From the UHGV virus genome UHGV-0149611: 14,327 nt of DNA. One strand, 5' to 3'. This DNA is from a virus. A program made the position numbers and the translations under genes. Shown piece by piece: positions 1,823-14,327 of this stretch. The notes beneath the pieces were generated by a model. That model saw only the letters and a program-made list of their open reading frames with translations, ran no database searches and had not been told where the DNA came from. Numbering within the stretch: position 1 is the first letter of the stretch; each line of letters begins with the position of its first letter.

Positions 1823-1876
1823 GGGGCTAAATAGCCCCAGATACCTCAACAGCCCCTATTTAAAGGGGCTTTTTTA
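1823..1876 (+). terminator. Rho-independent terminator: hairpin GGGGCT/AGCCCC (1823-1838), then AGCCCCT-ATTTAA-AGGGGCT (1851-1870) followed by TTTTTT (1871-1876)
   Basis: Perfect 7-bp GC-rich stem plus a 6-T tract immediately downstream of the last rightward small ORF. Confidence 0.8.
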
Positions 1877-3420
1877 CGTCTATTGAATCCTTATACAATC
1901 CCTTTCCAGAATCTTATCAGACCTTAAAAGCAATAACTCTATAGTCTACTCTATAACCTCTTATCAAATCAACTTAAATAAAAGCCAATAACCCCCAGAA
2001 AGGGGATGGCCCATTTAAACGCTCTATAAAGCTCTATAACAGCCTTATCAACCTAACTTAAGGGATTGCATTAACCAACCTTAAAAAGCTCTTTACAGGG
2101 CTTTATAGAGACTTAAAAGAATCTTATAAGGGTGTAAGCTTTATCATCTCGTTAGTATCTTGTGAATAACTAAAAAGGGCTATGAGATAGGAATCTATCG
2201 AATCCTATTGTTAGTGTCTTAAAAGTATGTTATAGGGGCTTAAAAGTTACTTCAAAGTTACGTAAAAGGGGTTATAAAGTTACGTAAATGCTAACCCCCT
2301 TAACATTATCTTAACAATCCCTACATAGTTATGCTTGTTAGAGACTTGTTAGCCACTTGTTAAATCTCTGTTAAGACCACGTAAAAGCCTTGTAAGAGTC
2401 TTTGACATAGCCTTAAAAGTTCCTGTAAAGCCCTATAAAGAGGTGTCTGTATAGTTGGGGTGTAACTACTAGGAAGAGACTTAAAAGGGGCTATACAGAG
2501 CTATAGAGAGCTTTTAAGAGGTATGTTTAAGGAATCACTAAGAAGGGAAAGGGAACGATAAGAAAGAGATAGTGACCATGTTAATAGCTTGTTAAAAAGA
2601 TTAAACACTTGTTAGAGACTTGTTAATTATCTTAACAAAATAACTCTTAAAAATTAACTTGTTAGCTCTTGTTAGTCATCTGTTAAGATTCTGTAAAGCC
2701 CATGTATCAACTGTTAAGAAACTGTTAAGCCCTTGTTAGTTCTGTTAAGAATCTGTTAAGACCTATGAAGAGTTGTTAAGAGCTTGAGAGAGTTGTTAAG
2801 AAATTGTTAAGGATATTTTAAAATTTTGCAAAGTACTTGTAAGGGAGTTGTTAAGGGCTACCAAGCAGATATACACCCTATTCAGATATTTTTGAGTTCC
2901 TTCAAAGACCCTAAAAAATGACTTGATAGTCCTATTTTATAAAAATTTTAAGATTCTGAATAATTACCTAGACAGTCTTTTAAAAATACAGGTAATAACA
3001 GGCTTATAAGATACCTTGTTAGTACCGTGTTAGACCTTGTGAGATAAGGTCTGTAAAGATATTCCTGTTAAGTTTGTTAAAACAGTCTATATAGAGGCTT
3101 AGTAATACCTAGTGAACACCTATAGAGAGTAACATAGCTGACATAGAGATTAAGAGGTGTATAGGAGCTTCTAAGAGGGTATAGAGAGATGGTTAAGGTG
3201 ATTGTATAGGTTGTTTAGAAGGCTTGTTAGAAGAGTGTTTAGAAGGGCTATTTAGAAGGGTTATACAGAGGGCTATTAAGACCACTAGATAGTTACTAAG
3301 ATACTATATAGTACTATATAACTATATAGAGAGTAAGATTAAGAAGGTTGTTAAGAAGGATAGATATTTTATTCACATATGATGGTGACCAAGAGGTTGG
3401 GACAACCGATAAAATTTTAT
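1877..3420. repeat. ~1.5-kb non-coding region of degenerate short words (CTTAAAAG, CTATAAAG, CTTGTTAG, CTGTTAAG, TTAGAAG, CTATATAG), partly phased at ~10-11 bp
   Basis: No ORF of 60 aa or more on either strand; stop-rich in all frames; YTGTTARG words starting at 2588, 2609, 2619, 2659, 2669, 2680, 2711, 2722, 2732, 2742, 2753, 2773, 2793, 2804. Confidence 0.8.
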
Positions 3421-3451
3421 AAAAATTAAAAAGCCCCCAATTAAGGAGGCT
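3421..3451 (-). terminator. Rho-independent terminator candidate at the end of the leftward gene block
   Basis: On the minus strand: AGCCTCC-TTAATT-GGGGGCT hairpin followed by TTTTTAATTTTT, just downstream of the stop at 3463. Confidence 0.6.
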
Positions 3452-3462
3452 CTTAAGATATT

Positions 3463-8115: not shown

Positions 8116-8580
8116 TTACTTTGGGTATACACTGTCAAGATAAATGTCAGCTTCCATTCTACGTCTGTTTTTCAGTCCGTTTGAAGTGACCTTCTGACCT
8201 TTGACTGTAACCTTGTTCCACCACTGCATAGCTTCTGCACAACCTACCTTATTACCAGCATTGTGGCGCTTGATAAATGTAGAATCCTGCATAGCTGTGA
8301 TACCGATGTTGTATGTTTCACTTACAAGTGCATCGAACTCATTCTGAGAAGTTGGAACCTTGATGGCTTTGTTCACTGCTACAACGAACTTTTCAACATC
8401 TGCGAGAAGATACTGTTCAGCTTGTTCAGCAGTAATTTTCATACCCATCTTAACAGGTTTTCCGTCAATACGGATTGTCCCATACCCAATTGTTGGGATT
8501 CCGGCAGAGTCTTCGTAAGCCTCTAACTTCAGACCTTCGAAGAACTTAATAGCATCTAAACCTTTTCTTGAGAGTTGCAT
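8116..8580 (-). CDS. lysozyme / endolysin, glycoside hydrolase family 24 (T4 e / P22 gp19 type)
   Basis: N-terminal catalytic signature EGLKLEAYEDSAGIPTIGYGT (Glu, then Asp 9 residues on, then Thr); overall resemblance to P22-type lysozyme including a C-terminal NRRR..E..L region. Confidence 0.85.
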   Translation of the reverse strand: MQLSRKGLDAIKFFEGLKLEAYEDSAGIPTIGYGTIRIDGKPVKMGMKITAEQAEQYLLADVEKFVVAVNKAIKVPTSQNEFDALVSETYNIGITAMQDSTFIKRHNAGNKVGCAEAMQWWNKVTVKGQKVTSNGLKNRRRMEADIYLDSVYPK

Positions 8581-9467
8581 TATGCCTCCCCTGCTGGATT
8601 AACTGTAACTGTTGCTGCATCTGAGGTAACACTTGTTCCACCCTCTCCAGATACAACACAAGTGTATGAACCAGCATCAGAAGGTGCTACTGACTGTTTT
8701 GTGTAAGTTGCAGAATTGGCACTAGGGATGTCCTCACCATCCTTCTTCCACTGATATCCAGTGGCGTTAGTTGCTAGAATGCTTAGAGTAAGTGTGCCAC
8801 CCTCATTGACTGTTTGACCTGTCGGTTGCTGAGTGATGACAGGAAGTGCATTCACAGTCACTGTTGCTGCATCTGAGGTAACACTTGTTCCACCCTCTCC
8901 AGATACAACACAAGTGTATGAACCAGCATCAGAAGGTGCTACTGACTGTTTTGTGTAAGTTGCAGAATTGGCACTAGGGATGTCCTCACCATCCTTCTTC
9001 CACTGATAACCTGTCGCACCTGTTGCCACAACATTCAGTGTTAAGGTCTCACCTTCAGTGATTTCTTGATTGGTTGGTTGCTGAGTAATTGCTGGTGACT
9101 TAATAGCATCCTTCAACTTAGCATTCAACATTGAGAACGGCTTAACTCTTGCCAACCATTCACAGTAAATTGTGTCAACATCTTTACCATTGATGATTGC
9201 ATACTGCAAATCCATGAAGAAATCAGCAGTTCTCATCTGTGCACCAACACTGTAAAGCAATTCATCACTAAATGGAACTTTGTAGTCTGGTTTGTAGTCA
9301 AACTTCTCAACTTCTGCAATATCAGCTTCAGGCCAATATGAACTATAGGTAAGTGGTAAAATAGCCTCTTGATATGTTCTAAAATCATACCTCTTACCAG
9401 CCTTTACATTTGCAATGAAACCCTTCACAAACTCTTTGAAGTCTGGGTAAGTCTTTGCTTTAATCAT
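8580..9467 (-). CDS. protein with ~120-aa N-terminal domain of unknown function plus two tandem Ig-like (I-set type) domains (295 aa)
   Basis: Two ~84-aa repeats of ITQQPT..EG.TLTL..ATGATGYQWKKDGEDIPSANSATYTKQSVAPSDAGSYTCVVSGEGGTSVTSDAATVTV, an Ig-fold pattern (W, Y.C, alternating beta residues); N-terminal domain paralogous to 9464-9835. Confidence 0.75.
   Translation of the reverse strand: MIKAKTYPDFKEFVKGFIANVKAGKRYDFRTYQEAILPLTYSSYWPEADIAEVEKFDYKPDYKVPFSDELLYSVGAQMRTADFFMDLQYAIINGKDVDTIYCEWLARVKPFSMLNAKLKDAIKSPAITQQPTNQEITEGETLTLNVVATGATGYQWKKDGEDIPSANSATYTKQSVAPSDAGSYTCVVSGEGGTSVTSDAATVTVNALPVITQQPTGQTVNEGGTLTLSILATNATGYQWKKDGEDIPSANSATYTKQSVAPSDAGSYTCVVSGEGGTSVTSDAATVTVNPAGEA
8608..9008. 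repeat. Tandem direct repeat, 252-bp period; 8608-8756 is 100% identical to 8860-9008, the rest of each unit diverged
   Basis: Direct comparison of the two segments; they encode the two Ig-like domains. Confidence 0.9.
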
Positions 9468-9835
9468 TTCTTTTTAGCCTCTAAATGTGCGTTTAGTCTA
9501 AAATAACCTTTGTGATGCGGAGATACATCACCAACAACAATACCTTTAACCTTATAACCTTTACCAATTACATACTGGATATCCATAAGGAATCTTCCAA
9601 GTCCAACAATATGGAACATTGGATATAATAGGTTCTCAGAATCTGGAATATTGATTTCAGGTTTGTAGGTACGCTGTTCGATTGTTGGTGTAATATCTTC
9701 TTCAGGCCATTTGCTGAGTCTCCATGTCAAAGGTGTTGGGATAACATCATTAAGGTTGTACCTTTCACCATTTTGCACGGAATTGATATAGGATTGTAGG
9801 AAGCAATAAAAGTCTTTTGCACTCTTAGCTTTCAT
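9464..9835 (-). CDS. hypothetical protein (123 aa), standalone paralogue of the N-terminal domain of the Ig-like protein
   Basis: Shared motifs with the 8580-9467 N-terminus (K.F..F...YI..V..G.RY, W.EED/W.EAD, YKP, L.Y, FLMD.QY.I); AAGGA SD 6 nt upstream. Confidence 0.65.
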   Translation of the reverse strand: MKAKSAKDFYCFLQSYINSVQNGERYNLNDVIPTPLTWRLSKWPEEDITPTIEQRTYKPEINIPDSENLLYPMFHIVGLGRFLMDIQYVIGKGYKVKGIVVGDVSPHHKGYFRLNAHLEAKKK

Positions 9836-9882: not shown

Positions 9883-10473
9883 TTAAGCTTTGGTCTTAAG
9901 TAGGTTCTTAAGTTTTTTAAGATTCATACTCTCATCAAACTTAAAACCAAATTCATTGACATAATCAATGAACTCGGATTTCTTACTGAGTGACAATGCG
10001 TAACTCATATCAAAGTTCTTACTTGTTTCTGCGTCTGGACTAGAGTTCACATCAAATGAAATTTCTGTAGGCTCTTGCTTACTTTTTCTCATATTATCAA
10101 CCAACAAACATGTATAGTTTGCTGGATAGAAATTTACACTACCATCAACGTAGCTGCACTTATTATTATGGATAAGGTTGGAAAATACCTTAAGGAATGT
10201 TTCTGAGTCGTGGCAAACAAGTTTGAATTGGCTGCTCTCTCCAAGCGCAACTAATGAGTACGGACTTTCACTATCAAAGTCATAATTTTGATTCGATGCC
10301 GTTACTGTTACACGCATCAAGTTATTAGCAATAGTCTTCTGTTTAAAAGAATTTTGAACATAGTGAAGACCTCTATCACACTGATTGACTAGCTCTTTAA
10401 GCAGGTCATTTGCATATGGTGAATTAATTGATACAGAGCCATCACTATTGTAATTAAAACTTACTGTTAACAT
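9883..10473 (-). CDS. hypothetical protein (196 aa)
   Basis: ORF with GGAG 9 nt upstream of ATG. Confidence 0.65.
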   Translation of the reverse strand: MLTVSFNYNSDGSVSINSPYANDLLKELVNQCDRGLHYVQNSFKQKTIANNLMRVTVTASNQNYDFDSESPYSLVALGESSQFKLVCHDSETFLKVFSNLIHNNKCSYVDGSVNFYPANYTCLLVDNMRKSKQEPTEISFDVNSSPDAETSKNFDMSYALSLSKKSEFIDYVNEFGFKFDESMNLKKLKNLLKTKA

Positions 10474-11545: not shown

Positions 11546-12961
11546 ATGAGCGAATTATTTAAACATGCGCACCTTCATGCAGGTCGAACTGAAAATGGTG
11601 CTGTAAACCATACTTCATCAATGTCTGCTCTTGTAGACTTTTACAAAGCTGCTGGTTCAAGCCGTAGCAACGTAGAAATCTTACCAGACCTGTTCTACAA
11701 AGCTTTGCGTGAGGATGTTGATGTTGCAGTTCGTATTTTGCTTCATATGCGAGATGTACGAGAAGGTATGGGTGAGCGTAAAGCCTTCAGAACTGTTTTA
11801 CTTCAAGCGATTGAAGACAAAGTTTTAGAGCCTACGCAGGTTCTTCGCATTATGGATAAGATTGCAGAACTTGGTCGTTTTGATGACTTCAAAATCTTCG
11901 TAGGTACTCGTTTCGAGACAGATGCCTTCAAACATCTAGAAGCAGCATTACTAGACCCTGCAACAGCAGGTTTGGCGGCTAAGTGGTTACCACGAGTCAA
12001 ACCACGTCATAAGCAGTTTGTAAAACGTTTCTGCAAGTTTGCCAACTTGAGTGAGAAAGAGTACCGCACACTGTTGTCTGCACTATCTGATACAGTTGAG
12101 CAAAAAATCTCTGCTAATGAGTTTGGTAAGATTGACTACAGTAAGATTCCTTCACTTGCTGCTGCACGTTACCAAAAACTGTTTAACCGCAAAGATGGAG
12201 AACGCTACAAAGCTTACATCGAGTCCTTATCAAAGGGTGAGACTAAGATTAATGCTGGTGCTGTTTACCCATACGATGTAATTAAATCTGTTAAGCATGG
12301 TAATGCAGATGTTGCTAATGAGCAGTGGAAAGCACTACCAAACTGGATGGCAGAGGGTGAAAACATCTTGTGTATGTCTGATGTTTCAAGCTCAATGTCT
12401 TGGGTGAATTTTGGTTCAATTACTGCTCTTGATATTGGTGTTTCACTTGCATTGTATGTAGCAGAACGTAATACAGGTTGCTTTAAGAATGAGTTGATGG
12501 TTTATTCAACAAACCCTCACTTCATCGAACTGAGTGGTGATTTACGAAACCGTCATCGTCAGGTGATGCGACACGTTGAATATGGCTCAACTAACTTACA
12601 AGCAGCTTTTGACCGTATTCTTGAAACAGGTAAAAGAAACAACTTGACTCAGAAAGATATGCCAAGTAAGCTTATCATCTTCTCCGATATGGAGTTCAAT
12701 CAGGTTGATGGAGCTAACGGTCGTACAAACTTTGAAGCAATTCGTAGTAAGTACAAAAAAGCTGGATACGAAATGCCTCAACTGGTATTCTGGTACTTAG
12801 CAAACCGTAATGGTACTTGCGAAGTGTCTGTTAAGGATAACGGTGTAGCAATGGTATCTGGTTTTTCTCCAGCTACTTTAAAAGCTCTGCTTGGTGGTGA
12901 GAAGTTTGACCCAATCAGCGTAATGCTCAAAGCAGTAATGATTGACCGTTATATCTGGTAA
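11546..12961 (+). CDS. von Willebrand factor A (vWA) domain protein with complete MIDAS motif (471 aa); possibly Ro60/TROVE-like
   Basis: C-terminal ~190 aa: ILCMSDVSSSM (DxSxS), GSTNL (Thr), LIIFSDME (Asp) in the expected order of a vWA fold; N-terminal ~270 aa appears helical; Ro60-like architecture is inferred only. Confidence 0.8.
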   Translation: MSELFKHAHLHAGRTENGAVNHTSSMSALVDFYKAAGSSRSNVEILPDLFYKALREDVDVAVRILLHMRDVREGMGERKAFRTVLLQAIEDKVLEPTQVLRIMDKIAELGRFDDFKIFVGTRFETDAFKHLEAALLDPATAGLAAKWLPRVKPRHKQFVKRFCKFANLSEKEYRTLLSALSDTVEQKISANEFGKIDYSKIPSLAAARYQKLFNRKDGERYKAYIESLSKGETKINAGAVYPYDVIKSVKHGNADVANEQWKALPNWMAEGENILCMSDVSSSMSWVNFGSITALDIGVSLALYVAERNTGCFKNELMVYSTNPHFIELSGDLRNRHRQVMRHVEYGSTNLQAAFDRILETGKRNNLTQKDMPSKLIIFSDMEFNQVDGANGRTNFEAIRSKYKKAGYEMPQLVFWYLANRNGTCEVSVKDNGVAMVSGFSPATLKALLGGEKFDPISVMLKAVMIDRYIW

Positions 12962-13126: not shown

Positions 13127-13203
13127 CTCTGTTTAGCTCAGCTTGGTAGAGCGTTCCGTTTGGGGCGGTAAGGCCGGAGGTTCAAGTCCTCCAACAGAGA
13201 CCA
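13127..13203 (+). tRNA. tRNA-Pro (anticodon UGG), CCA encoded
   Basis: Acceptor CTCTGTT/AACAGAG, D-loop AGCTTGGTA, anticodon loop TTTGGGG, T-arm GGAGG-TTCAAGT-CCTCC, discriminator A, CCA; C1:G72 as is typical for tRNA-Pro. Confidence 0.85.
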
Positions 13204-13210
13204 AATTAAT

Positions 13211-13288
13211 GTTCCAGTAGACAAAATGGTAAAGTCACCACTCTTTCAAAGTGGATATCTGAGGGTTCAAATCCCTTCTGGAACGCCA
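13211..13288 (+). tRNA. tRNA-Glu (anticodon UUC), CCA encoded
   Basis: Acceptor GTTCCAG/CTGGAAC, anticodon arm CCACT-CTTTCAA-AGTGG, T-arm GAGGG-TTCAAAT-CCCTT, discriminator G, CCA. Confidence 0.75.
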
Positions 13289-13295
13289 GTTTTGA

Positions 13296-13367
13296 CAGAA
13301 GACCAATTACAGCAAACTTAATCTACTCATCTGACACGAAATCGGACAAAGAAGATATTTGGTCTGG
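13296..13367 (+). ncRNA. Stem-bounded element a: CAGAAGACCAA ... TTGGTCTGG
   Basis: 7-bp arms AGACCAA/TTGGTCT enclosing 52 nt; conserved flanks CAGAAGACC and GGTCTGG shared with elements b-d. Confidence 0.4.
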
Positions 13368-13378
13368 TCATTGAGAAT

Positions 13379-13455
13379 TGCGGGTATAGAGAAAGGGCGT
13401 CTCACATGTCTCATTAGCATGGTATCGGCAGGTTCGACTCCTGCACCCGCCTCCA
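13379..13455 (+). tRNA. tRNA with anticodon CAU (Met or Ile2); atypical features
   Basis: T-arm GCAGG-TTCGACT-CCTGC, acceptor 3' ACCCGCC plus U plus CCA, D-arm GAGA/TCTC, anticodon arm CATGT-CTCATTA-GCATG; register of the 5' acceptor strand ambiguous by 1 nt; position 37 is U. Confidence 0.55.
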
Positions 13456-13461
13456 ATTTTG

Positions 13462-13521
13462 CAGAAGACCGTATTCAGCAACAAAATACTTTTTGCGGAT
13501 AAAAGAAAAAACACGGTCTGG
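13462..13521 (+). ncRNA. Stem-bounded element b: CAGAAGACCGT ... ACGGTCTGG
   Basis: 7-bp arms AGACCGT/ACGGTCT enclosing 40 nt; arm sequence co-varies relative to elements a and c. Confidence 0.4.
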
Positions 13522-13532
13522 CAATGTATTAA

Positions 13533-13609
13533 GGTTAGGAAGCACATAAGGTATGTGCGGTCGCCTGTTAAGCGAATGGCACAGGGTTCGAATCCCTGAC
13601 TAACCGCCA
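13533..13609 (+). tRNA. tRNA-Asn (anticodon GUU), CCA encoded
   Basis: D-arm GCAC/GTGC, anticodon loop CTGTTAA, T-arm CAGGG-TTCGAAT-CCCTG, acceptor 3' ACTAACC, discriminator G, CCA. Confidence 0.8.
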
Positions 13610-13618
13610 AATTTAAAT

Positions 13619-13706
13619 GTGTCGTTATCCCGTAGATGGTAGCGGTGGGGACTGTAAATCCCTTGTCATTGAGACTCGGTAGGTTCGACTCCTACACGAC
13701 ACACCA
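13619..13706 (+). tRNA. tRNA-Tyr (anticodon GUA), long variable arm, CCA encoded
   Basis: Acceptor GTGTCGT/ACGACAC, anticodon arm GGGGA-CTGTAAA-TCCCT, ~15-nt variable arm, T-arm GTAGG-TTCGACT-CCTAC, discriminator A, CCA; 88 nt. Confidence 0.85.
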
Positions 13707-13711
13707 ATAAA

Positions 13712-13789
13712 GGTTATGTAGTTTAATTTGGTTAAAATACTACCCTGTCACGGGAGATGATGAGGGTTCAAATCCCTTCGTAACCGCCA
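13712..13789 (+). tRNA. tRNA-Asp (anticodon GUC), CCA encoded
   Basis: Acceptor GGTTATG/CGTAACC (one G-U), anticodon loop CTGTCAC, T-arm GAGGG-TTCAAAT-CCCTT, discriminator G, CCA. Confidence 0.8.
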
Positions 13790-14218: not shown

Positions 14219-14278
14219 GGAAGTGTAGCAGAATGGTGATGCGGCAGACTTTTAATCTGACAGGCGATGGGTTCGAAT
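14219..14278 (+). tRNA. tRNA-Lys (anticodon UUU), 3' end truncated by the end of the real insert
   Basis: Acceptor 5' GGAAGTG, D-arm GCA/TGC, anticodon arm GCAGA-CTTTTAA-TCTGA, T-stem 5' ATGGG plus T-loop TTCGAAT, then adapter begins. Confidence 0.55.
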
Positions 14279-14327
14279 CTGTCTCTTATACACATCTCCG
14301 AGCCCACGAGACACTCGCTAATCTCGT
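14279..14327. other. Illumina Nextera adapter read-through (not biological sequence)
   Basis: CTGTCTCTTATACACATCT + CCGAGCCCACGAGAC + 8-nt index ACTCGCTA + ATCTCGT, the transposase mosaic end followed by the i7/P7 adapter layout. Confidence 0.95.

Follow-up and report, generated by a model that had tools for sequence, protein, structure and literature searches.

The two immunoglobulin-like (Ig) units of a phage Hex-Dec gene have probably been rearranged by very recent, mostly non-reciprocal homologous recombination with each other. The gene lies in a stretch of 14,327 nucleotides of the virus genome UHGV-0149611, which was analysed at its full length and is called the window in the following. 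The allele is new and unique among 153 homologues: its first unit is a hybrid, the order of its modules is permuted, and a C-terminal part of the T type is lacking. It is missing from phage isolates, IMG/VR and the JGI metagenomes. The kind of event is ordinary and carries the signature of gene conversion or unequal crossing-over in tandem repeats.

The window belongs to a Felixounavirus, since 251 phage records match it at 80-96% identity. The repeated units sit in an open reading frame of 295 amino acids on the minus strand (8580-9467). Its residues 1-123 gave no Pfam match, and residues ~125-290 form two Ig domains, for which Ig_3, Ig_2 and I-set were each found above the Pfam cut-offs in two stretches (Ig_3 with 84.7 bits, cut-off 30). 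A phmmer search against the PDB sequences identified 9ncf_S (E 4.9e-282), with nearly identical residues 1-123, and 9c2d_S (E 2.7e-152). The first is the Hex-Dec protein of Escherichia phage Bas63 (9NCF chain S; PMC12609058) and the second is gp20 of Shigella phage Sf14 (9C2D/9C3A chain S; PMC11821841). Both were described as monomeric Hoc-like decoration proteins, and cryo-EM located the monomer at the centre of the facet-edge hexamers of a T=9 capsid (PMC12609058; PMC11821841). The 295-aa protein matches phrog_3995, and matches to PHROG families named 'Hoc-like' cover residues 128-293 only, i.e. the Ig part. Judged by its sequence, the reading frame is thus assigned to the Hex-Dec/gp20 family of Felixounavirus Hoc-like decoration proteins. 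[quoted passage not shown] In databases the protein is labelled 'tail protein' or 'HK97 major tail subunit', wrongly and on the strength of the Ig domains only.

An AF2 model reached a pLDDT of ~95 for both Ig units, and the best Foldseek matches were proteins with tandem I-set Ig domains, Robo and titin among them. The model of CapBD was poor (pLDDT <60, shallow alignment), and this domain was read from the solved homologues instead. The gene order CapBD paralogue, Hex-Dec, endolysin is the same in Felix O1, FO1a, JLBYU32, humlepung, adrianh and NBSal004. The Hex-Dec gene is located more than 10 kb outside the structural module (PMC12609058). The upstream paralogue is coupled translationally to Hex-Dec by an ATGA overlap, its stop codon overlapping the Hex-Dec start, and its match to phrog_4463 is accompanied by a cross-match to phrog_3995. 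It may be a competitor for hexamer centres or fill others.

Further features of the window were recorded. As is typical of phages like Felix O1, the plus strand carries a cluster of six tRNA genes at 13127-13789 (Pro-TGG, Glu-TTC, Met-CAT, Asn-GTT, Tyr-GTA, Asp-GTC), and the reading frames called across it are spurious. Just upstream of the cluster and divergent from the Hex-Dec operon, a plus-strand gene (11546-12961) codes for a 471-aa protein with DUF2828 and DUF7788 (phrog_850, 'RNA-binding protein'). Short direct repeat arrays with units of the type TGTTAAGA were found at 2660-2801 and 3212-3281, with periods of 11, 20 and 31 nt and an additional array with a 25-nt period. They are placed within ~1.6 kb that contain no reading frame of at least 50 aa (1850-3462), and they look like iterons. 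The homologous region of the KhF1 record is annotated as 'direct repeat ... possible binding site of StbAB'. The window ends with 48 nt (14280-14327) of untrimmed Nextera adapter read-through (CTGTCTCTTATACACATCTCCGAGCCCACGAGAC, index, ATCTCGT). A related assembly (L034) runs on into phage sequence at this point, and the adapter truncates a seventh tRNA-like match (Rfam, 14219-14290). The terminal adapter indicates that reads were incompletely trimmed before assembly.

The initial annotation had described 149 bp of perfect identity between the two units, and this was confirmed: 8608-8756 and 8860-9008 agree base for base, at an offset of 252 nt. A repeat search placed the tract in a direct repeat of 243 bp with 86% identity (8595-8837 and 8847-9089), and TRF reported a period of 252 with 1.9 copies. 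All 33 mismatches of the 243-position alignment fall within the 94 positions outside the tract. For 33 uniformly placed mismatches, the probability of avoiding a pre-specified block of 149 nt is 4e-16, and a run of at least 149 was obtained in none of 200,000 permutations. In eight canonical relatives the homologous tract shows merely 64-71% identity between the two units. Among more than 30 relatives, only two have an exact in-register run exceeding 41 nt. Given the minus-strand orientation of the gene, the C-terminal ~50 residues of each Ig domain (YQWKK...SDAAT) are encoded by the identical tract and the N-terminal third by the diverged part. The divergence previously assigned to the last ~100 bp of the units is found there, but in gene orientation these positions are the first third of the unit. 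The diverged 5' parts of the two units differ at 29 of 81 positions (64% identity).

The origin of this pattern becomes apparent by comparison with a sister strain, represented by IMG/VR contig L004 and Logan contig L039 (SRR4305394). Over ~5 kb outside the array, the sister and the window are separated by only 3 SNPs; inside the array they differ at ~100 positions. Its array is canonical for two-unit Felixounaviruses: a first unit A (half-modules a5 and a3), a linker, a last unit T (t5 and t3) and a tail. Between its units, the tract homologous to the identical one is 70.5% identical, compared with 100% over 149 nt in the window. The parts of the window gene and its neighbours are the following, all on the minus strand.

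8580-9467, minus strand: Hex-Dec gene, 295 aa (reading frame, Pfam, phrog_3995, PDB 9ncf_S and 9c2d_S)
9087-9467, minus strand: part coding for CapBD, gene nucleotides 1-381, including the junction of CapBD and array; 100% identical to L004, aligned with residues 1-123 of Bas63 Hex-Dec
9076-9086, minus strand: patch p1, copy 1, 11 nt (coding strand ACTCAGCAACC; ITQQP, strand A according to AF2), common to both units in the window and in L004; switch from CapBD to t5
9009-9075, minus strand: half-module t5, the 5' part of unit 1; in the sister, the identical sequence forms the 5' part of unit T, the last one (painting against L004)
8860-9008, minus strand: copy 1 of the 149-bp tract, consisting of p2 (TATCAGTGGAAGAA; YQWKK, strand C), a3 and p3 (ATGCAGCAACAGT; strand G)
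8835-8859, minus strand: linker VTVNALPVI between the units, as in the sister strain
8824-8834, minus strand: patch p1, copy 2; switch from linker to a5
8757-8823, minus strand: half-module a5, the 5' part of unit 2; in the sister, the identical sequence forms the 5' part of unit A, the first one
8608-8756, minus strand: copy 2 of the 149-bp tract (p2, a3 and p3), in place of t3 of the sister
8580-8607, minus strand: C-terminal tail TVNPAGEA and stop codon, of the T-unit type; stop codon overlapping with the start codon of the endolysin
9464-9835, minus strand: upstream neighbour, 123-aa CapBD paralogue without Ig domains (BLASTP 38%, E 1e-16; phrog_4463)
8116-8580, minus strand: downstream neighbour, endolysin (Phage_lysozyme; PF00959, E 2.7e-40; phrog_7)

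Base-by-base painting showed that each nucleotide of the window array equals, in register, unit 1 or unit 2 of L004, with no private changes. The array can be rebuilt exactly from L004 modules as cap+[p1 t5 p2 a3 p3]+link+[p1 a5 p2 a3 p3]+tail. Thus, a3 is present in both units, t3 is lost and the 5' modules are exchanged in position. The 149-bp identity results from both units now carrying a3. The switch points are the sole stretches common to both units, p1 with 11 nt, p2 with 14 nt and p3 with 13 nt; in the AF2 model they correspond to strand A (ITQQP), strand C (YQWKK) and strand G (AATV), respectively. The modules a5 and t5 are each 100% identical to the sister counterpart, and both are conserved at fixed positions throughout the genus. 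The order of the 5' half-modules, which the initial annotation did not mention, is swapped relative to every relative examined. In nearly all of the 153 homologues A is the first and T the last unit; hence A-T is regarded as the ancestral order.

The three differences from the sister outside the array, at window positions 9583, 9953 and 10157, are all nonsynonymous, with no synonymous change in ~5 kb. The difference at 9583 affects residue 85 of the CapBD paralogue (D vs Y). A reading frame of 196 aa (9883-10473) differs at residues 174 (E vs G) and 106 (C vs Y). These two changes are derived and private to the window-type strain.

The following course is proposed for the preferred reading, the recombination between the two units. 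An ancestor with the array a5-a3-link-t5-t3-tail would have given rise to the window array t5-a3-link-a5-a3-tail after the units were misaligned by one repeat during recombination. The T unit would have been overwritten wholly by A sequence, from p1 through p3, and the 5' third of unit 1, from p1 to p2, by T sequence. At least two conversion-type events in which a misaligned sibling genome served as donor would be needed, or else a single gap repair during which the template was switched several times; how many events there were, in which order, and by which enzymes is inferred. The exchanges would take place at short patches common to all units, which are shared because they encode conserved core beta-strands of the Ig fold. 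Switches at such strand-coding patches preserve both frame and register, and every product should thus remain able to fold. Taking the form of unequal crossing-over, this process would also add or remove whole units across the genus. A perfect direct repeat of 149 bp within the array is predicted to make it more prone to further loss or gain of units. One unequal crossover, or excision of a 252-nt circle and its re-insertion, was considered and rejected, as the window array needs further conversion in addition.

Ten predicted intermediates or derivatives in the L004 background (TA only, TA-A-A, TA-T, A-A, TA-AT, A-TA-T, A-A-T, TA-A-T, A only and T only) were searched by exact look-up in ~15 billion proteins and none was found. 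Four switches at only 11-14 nt of identity are also much for lineages 3 SNPs apart, which counts against the proposed mechanism. Recent gene conversion had been suggested before from the tract, and the sister, 3 flank SNPs apart, indeed has a diverged T-type unit where the window has a second A-type one. This suggestion was essentially right yet incomplete; the process is best put as non-reciprocal recombination between units. The arrangement of modules fits a recent, non-reciprocal exchange and not a duplication followed by divergence.

The array might instead be an assembly artefact, either a chimeric path through a mix of closely related Felixounavirus strains or an array t5a3-(link-a5-a3)n, n>1, collapsed in assembly, though this is improbable. 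The window is the ENA contig ERZ652052 NODE_611, a SPAdes-style metagenome contig with a k-mer coverage of only 10.8 and an adapter at its end, and the canonical sister (L039, SRR4305394) comes from a run whose accession number is a neighbouring one. Furthermore, the 149-bp repeat exceeds usual k-mers, so that the copy number depends on read pairs, and two other window-type assemblies fail to traverse the tract. The junction patches of 11-14 nt, however, are below any usual assembly k, and each novel junction therefore needs spanning reads. All four junctions recur, identical, in a scaffold of a different BioSample and assembly, ERZ28648653 (SAMN10275302), which reads CapBD-t5-a3[N gap]a3-link-a5-a3-tail-endolysin. 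Its N gap falls inside copy 1 of the tract, and the two sides of the gap are 100% and 99.95% identical to the window. The junction of CapBD, t5 and a3 is also contained in ERZ28648386 and ERZ1742261, and both of these assemblies end in a fold-back after the first 35 nt of the tract. The two private derived SNPs are linked with the junction haplotype, and the window-type strain carrying them was present in six assemblies or runs. Given this set of junctions, the only alternative path through a single genome would contain extra (link-a5-a3) units in the same order. The module order is therefore very likely real.

The fold-backs were seen in L034 (6495-6533) and L035 (616-654), independent assemblies of the window-type strain. 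Both break off at window position 8974, within the 149-bp tract, in an inverted fold-back of 39 nt with CCTAGG at its centre. It is a tip artefact of the assembler, and a bogus truncated protein of 172 aa (P0129) in a protein database stems from it. The recurrence of the four unusual junctions in the scaffold of an independent sample speaks for the order of the pieces. A collapse of the repeat during assembly, which the initial annotation had also considered, is unsupported, but short-read assemblies may hide extra (link-a5-a3) units, and two assemblies break in the tract. That the tract troubles assemblers is correct. The window-type array is known from low-coverage short-read metagenome assemblies only, and these may have one cohort, or even one host, as common source. 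The junction of linker and a5 was found in one piece in none of 50,697 phage records, and a back-translated degenerate pattern of it gave no match in IMG/VR or the JGI metagenomes. A junction of this type was detected elsewhere only in the ENA contig L036, which belongs to a different lineage. Neither this junction nor a long perfect tract was found in any cultured isolate.

It is quite unlikely that the allele was imported whole from a co-infecting Felixounavirus already starting with T or ending with A. Potential donors of single junctions are known: CapBD is joined directly to t5 in adrianh, NBSal004 and phiWec177, and a3 is joined directly to the tail in JLBYU32 and FO1a. In addition, a dozen Felixounavirus strains were found in one metagenome sample. 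Against an import, every base of the array belongs to the sister's own modules without foreign substitutions, whereas other lineages differ by 4-10%, and the junctions of linker with a5 and of t5 with a3 occur in no known phage. A sibling genome of the same strain is thus the simplest donor, and the import shades into the preferred explanation.

A recent tandem duplication of one Ig unit with subsequent patchy divergence of its 5' third, as had also been proposed, is excluded for practical purposes. In isolation, a perfect tract beside a diverged one in a tandem repeat could look so. The diverged 5' parts (29/81 positions), however, are the old modules a5 and t5, each matching a pre-existing module of the sister that is conserved genus-wide, and with 3 flank SNPs only there was no time for such divergence. 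The template and variable repeats of a DGR, or an identity held by selection on DNA or RNA, were rejected as hardly conceivable: the ~150 bp repeat and the Ig-type virion target are superficially reminiscent of a DGR, but zero mismatches between the copies leave no adenine-specific pattern, no reverse transcriptase was found among the 18 reading frames scanned, canonical relatives do without the identity, and Rfam shows tRNAs only.

The recombination between units proposed for the window is accompanied by a wide variation of the array within the genus. The number of units in relatives ranges from 1 to 4, with more than 20 different architectures among the 153 homologues, and the varying number of Ig modules between phages presumed in the initial annotation was thereby verified. 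Published data likewise report 1-4 predicted Ig domains across Felixounavirus species (PMC12609058). Genes with a single unit consist of T only in adrianh, NBSal004 and phiWec177, or of A plus the tail in JLBYU32 and FO1a; other single-unit hybrids are a5|t3 joined at p2 and joins at ATYTK and at SYTCVV. In general, isolates as well as metagenomes contain in-register hybrid units with varied breakpoints (T only, A only, a5|t3, b5|t3, b|c and others), and the genes with three units include b|c hybrids derived from four-unit arrays. Felix O1 (L055) and FO1a (L054) are one 249-nt unit apart, with flanks 100% and 99.9% identical, and the crossover lies within a 17-nt p3 patch. In the Felix O1 record the gene is split into overlapping coding sequences named 'HK97 major tail subunit'. 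The array evolves by in-register homologous exchange at strand-coding patches.

Long perfect tracts were also found in two other metagenome contigs. L036 contains a tract of 191 bp in an array A-A', the two copies having private substitutions in common, and L037 one of 263 bp in an array A-B-T-T. These tracts are of independent origin and represent events analogous to that of the window. A junction of T with T was found in no isolate; the perfect T-T duplication occurs only in the metagenome contig L037. The same contig lacks ~226 nt of the CapBD paralogue (window 9538-9763). In P0005, a protein of 436 aa with four units from ENA, the third unit has an in-frame internal deletion of ~25 residues (YQWKKG|TCVV). 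This removes strands D-E and should break that Ig domain; it may be a product of recombination out of register or an assembly error. In a large protein search the best 120 matches all had three or four units, since summed domain scores favour long arrays, and the frequency of two-unit variants is unreadable from this search.

More speculatively, the array could act as a fast recombination cassette in a host-associated population, its sub-domain modules, delimited by strand-coding microhomologies, being shuffled, converted, lost and gained within the time of few SNPs, which we regard as rather doubtful. If so, window-like alleles would make the length of the capsid fibre heterogeneous within one population, a trait resembling phase variation. 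This trait and the two private nonsynonymous changes in the adjacent 196-aa reading frame could then be selected jointly.

The results suggest a mechanism at the sequence level for a point left open by two cryo-EM papers, namely why Felix-O1-like phages have one to four Ig domains. Units or half-units would be exchanged, deleted and duplicated in register, even between otherwise near-identical genomes. At this locus, short-read assemblies are liable to break and may count the units wrongly, which is relevant for comparing, typing and engineering Felixounaviruses, e.g. for capsid display. A new kind of system is not revealed.

Bas63 (Escherichia phage JohannRWettstein) is of the same family and genus as the window and has a near-identical CapBD and I-set repeats of the A and T types, but four units (A-B-D-T) instead of two. 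The first unit of the window is a T/A hybrid, in contrast to the strong conservation of Ig repeat 1 noted in the Bas63 study, in which changes of the copy number are not explained (PMC12609058). The gp20 of Shigella phage Sf14 is a homologous Hoc-like decoration protein of an ounavirus with three Ig units and a more diverged sequence. It was detected in virions by mass spectrometry and located at the centre of specific hexamers (PMC11821841). Its authors note the variable Ig number and suggest a gain of domains from host genes, or loss (PMC11821841). The window data instead point to intragenic in-register recombination between existing units.

Orthologues from the type species are gp12 of Felix O1 ('HK97 major tail subunit', AF320576) and gp36 of FO1a. 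The crossover in FO1a uses the same p3 patch as the junction of a3 with the tail in the window. The FO1a case is a simple deletion of one unit, whereas the window shows a replacement and a swap with an unchanged number of units. T4 Hoc and T5 pb10 resemble Hex-Dec: in each case a monomer sits at the centre of the hexamer and a string of Ig-like domains projects from it. Adhesion or sensing of the environment have been proposed as roles of these strings. The capsid-binding domain is C-terminal in Hoc and N-terminal in Hex-Dec, and the two are topologically distinct (PMC12609058). Between T4 Hoc and the window protein no sequence similarity was found outside the Ig part. By this comparison of sequences, the window protein would work like T4 Hoc but is not a member of the Hoc family, with a reversed domain order and a different CapBD.

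Tandem-repeat surface proteins undergo concerted evolution by gene conversion and unequal crossing-over. As in the textbook case, in-register repeats, identical tracts amid older divergence, polymorphism of the copy number and breakpoints in conserved patches were found here. Unlike the textbook case, the window exchanges sub-domain modules at strand-coding patches of 11-17 nt, and its 5' modules are permuted.
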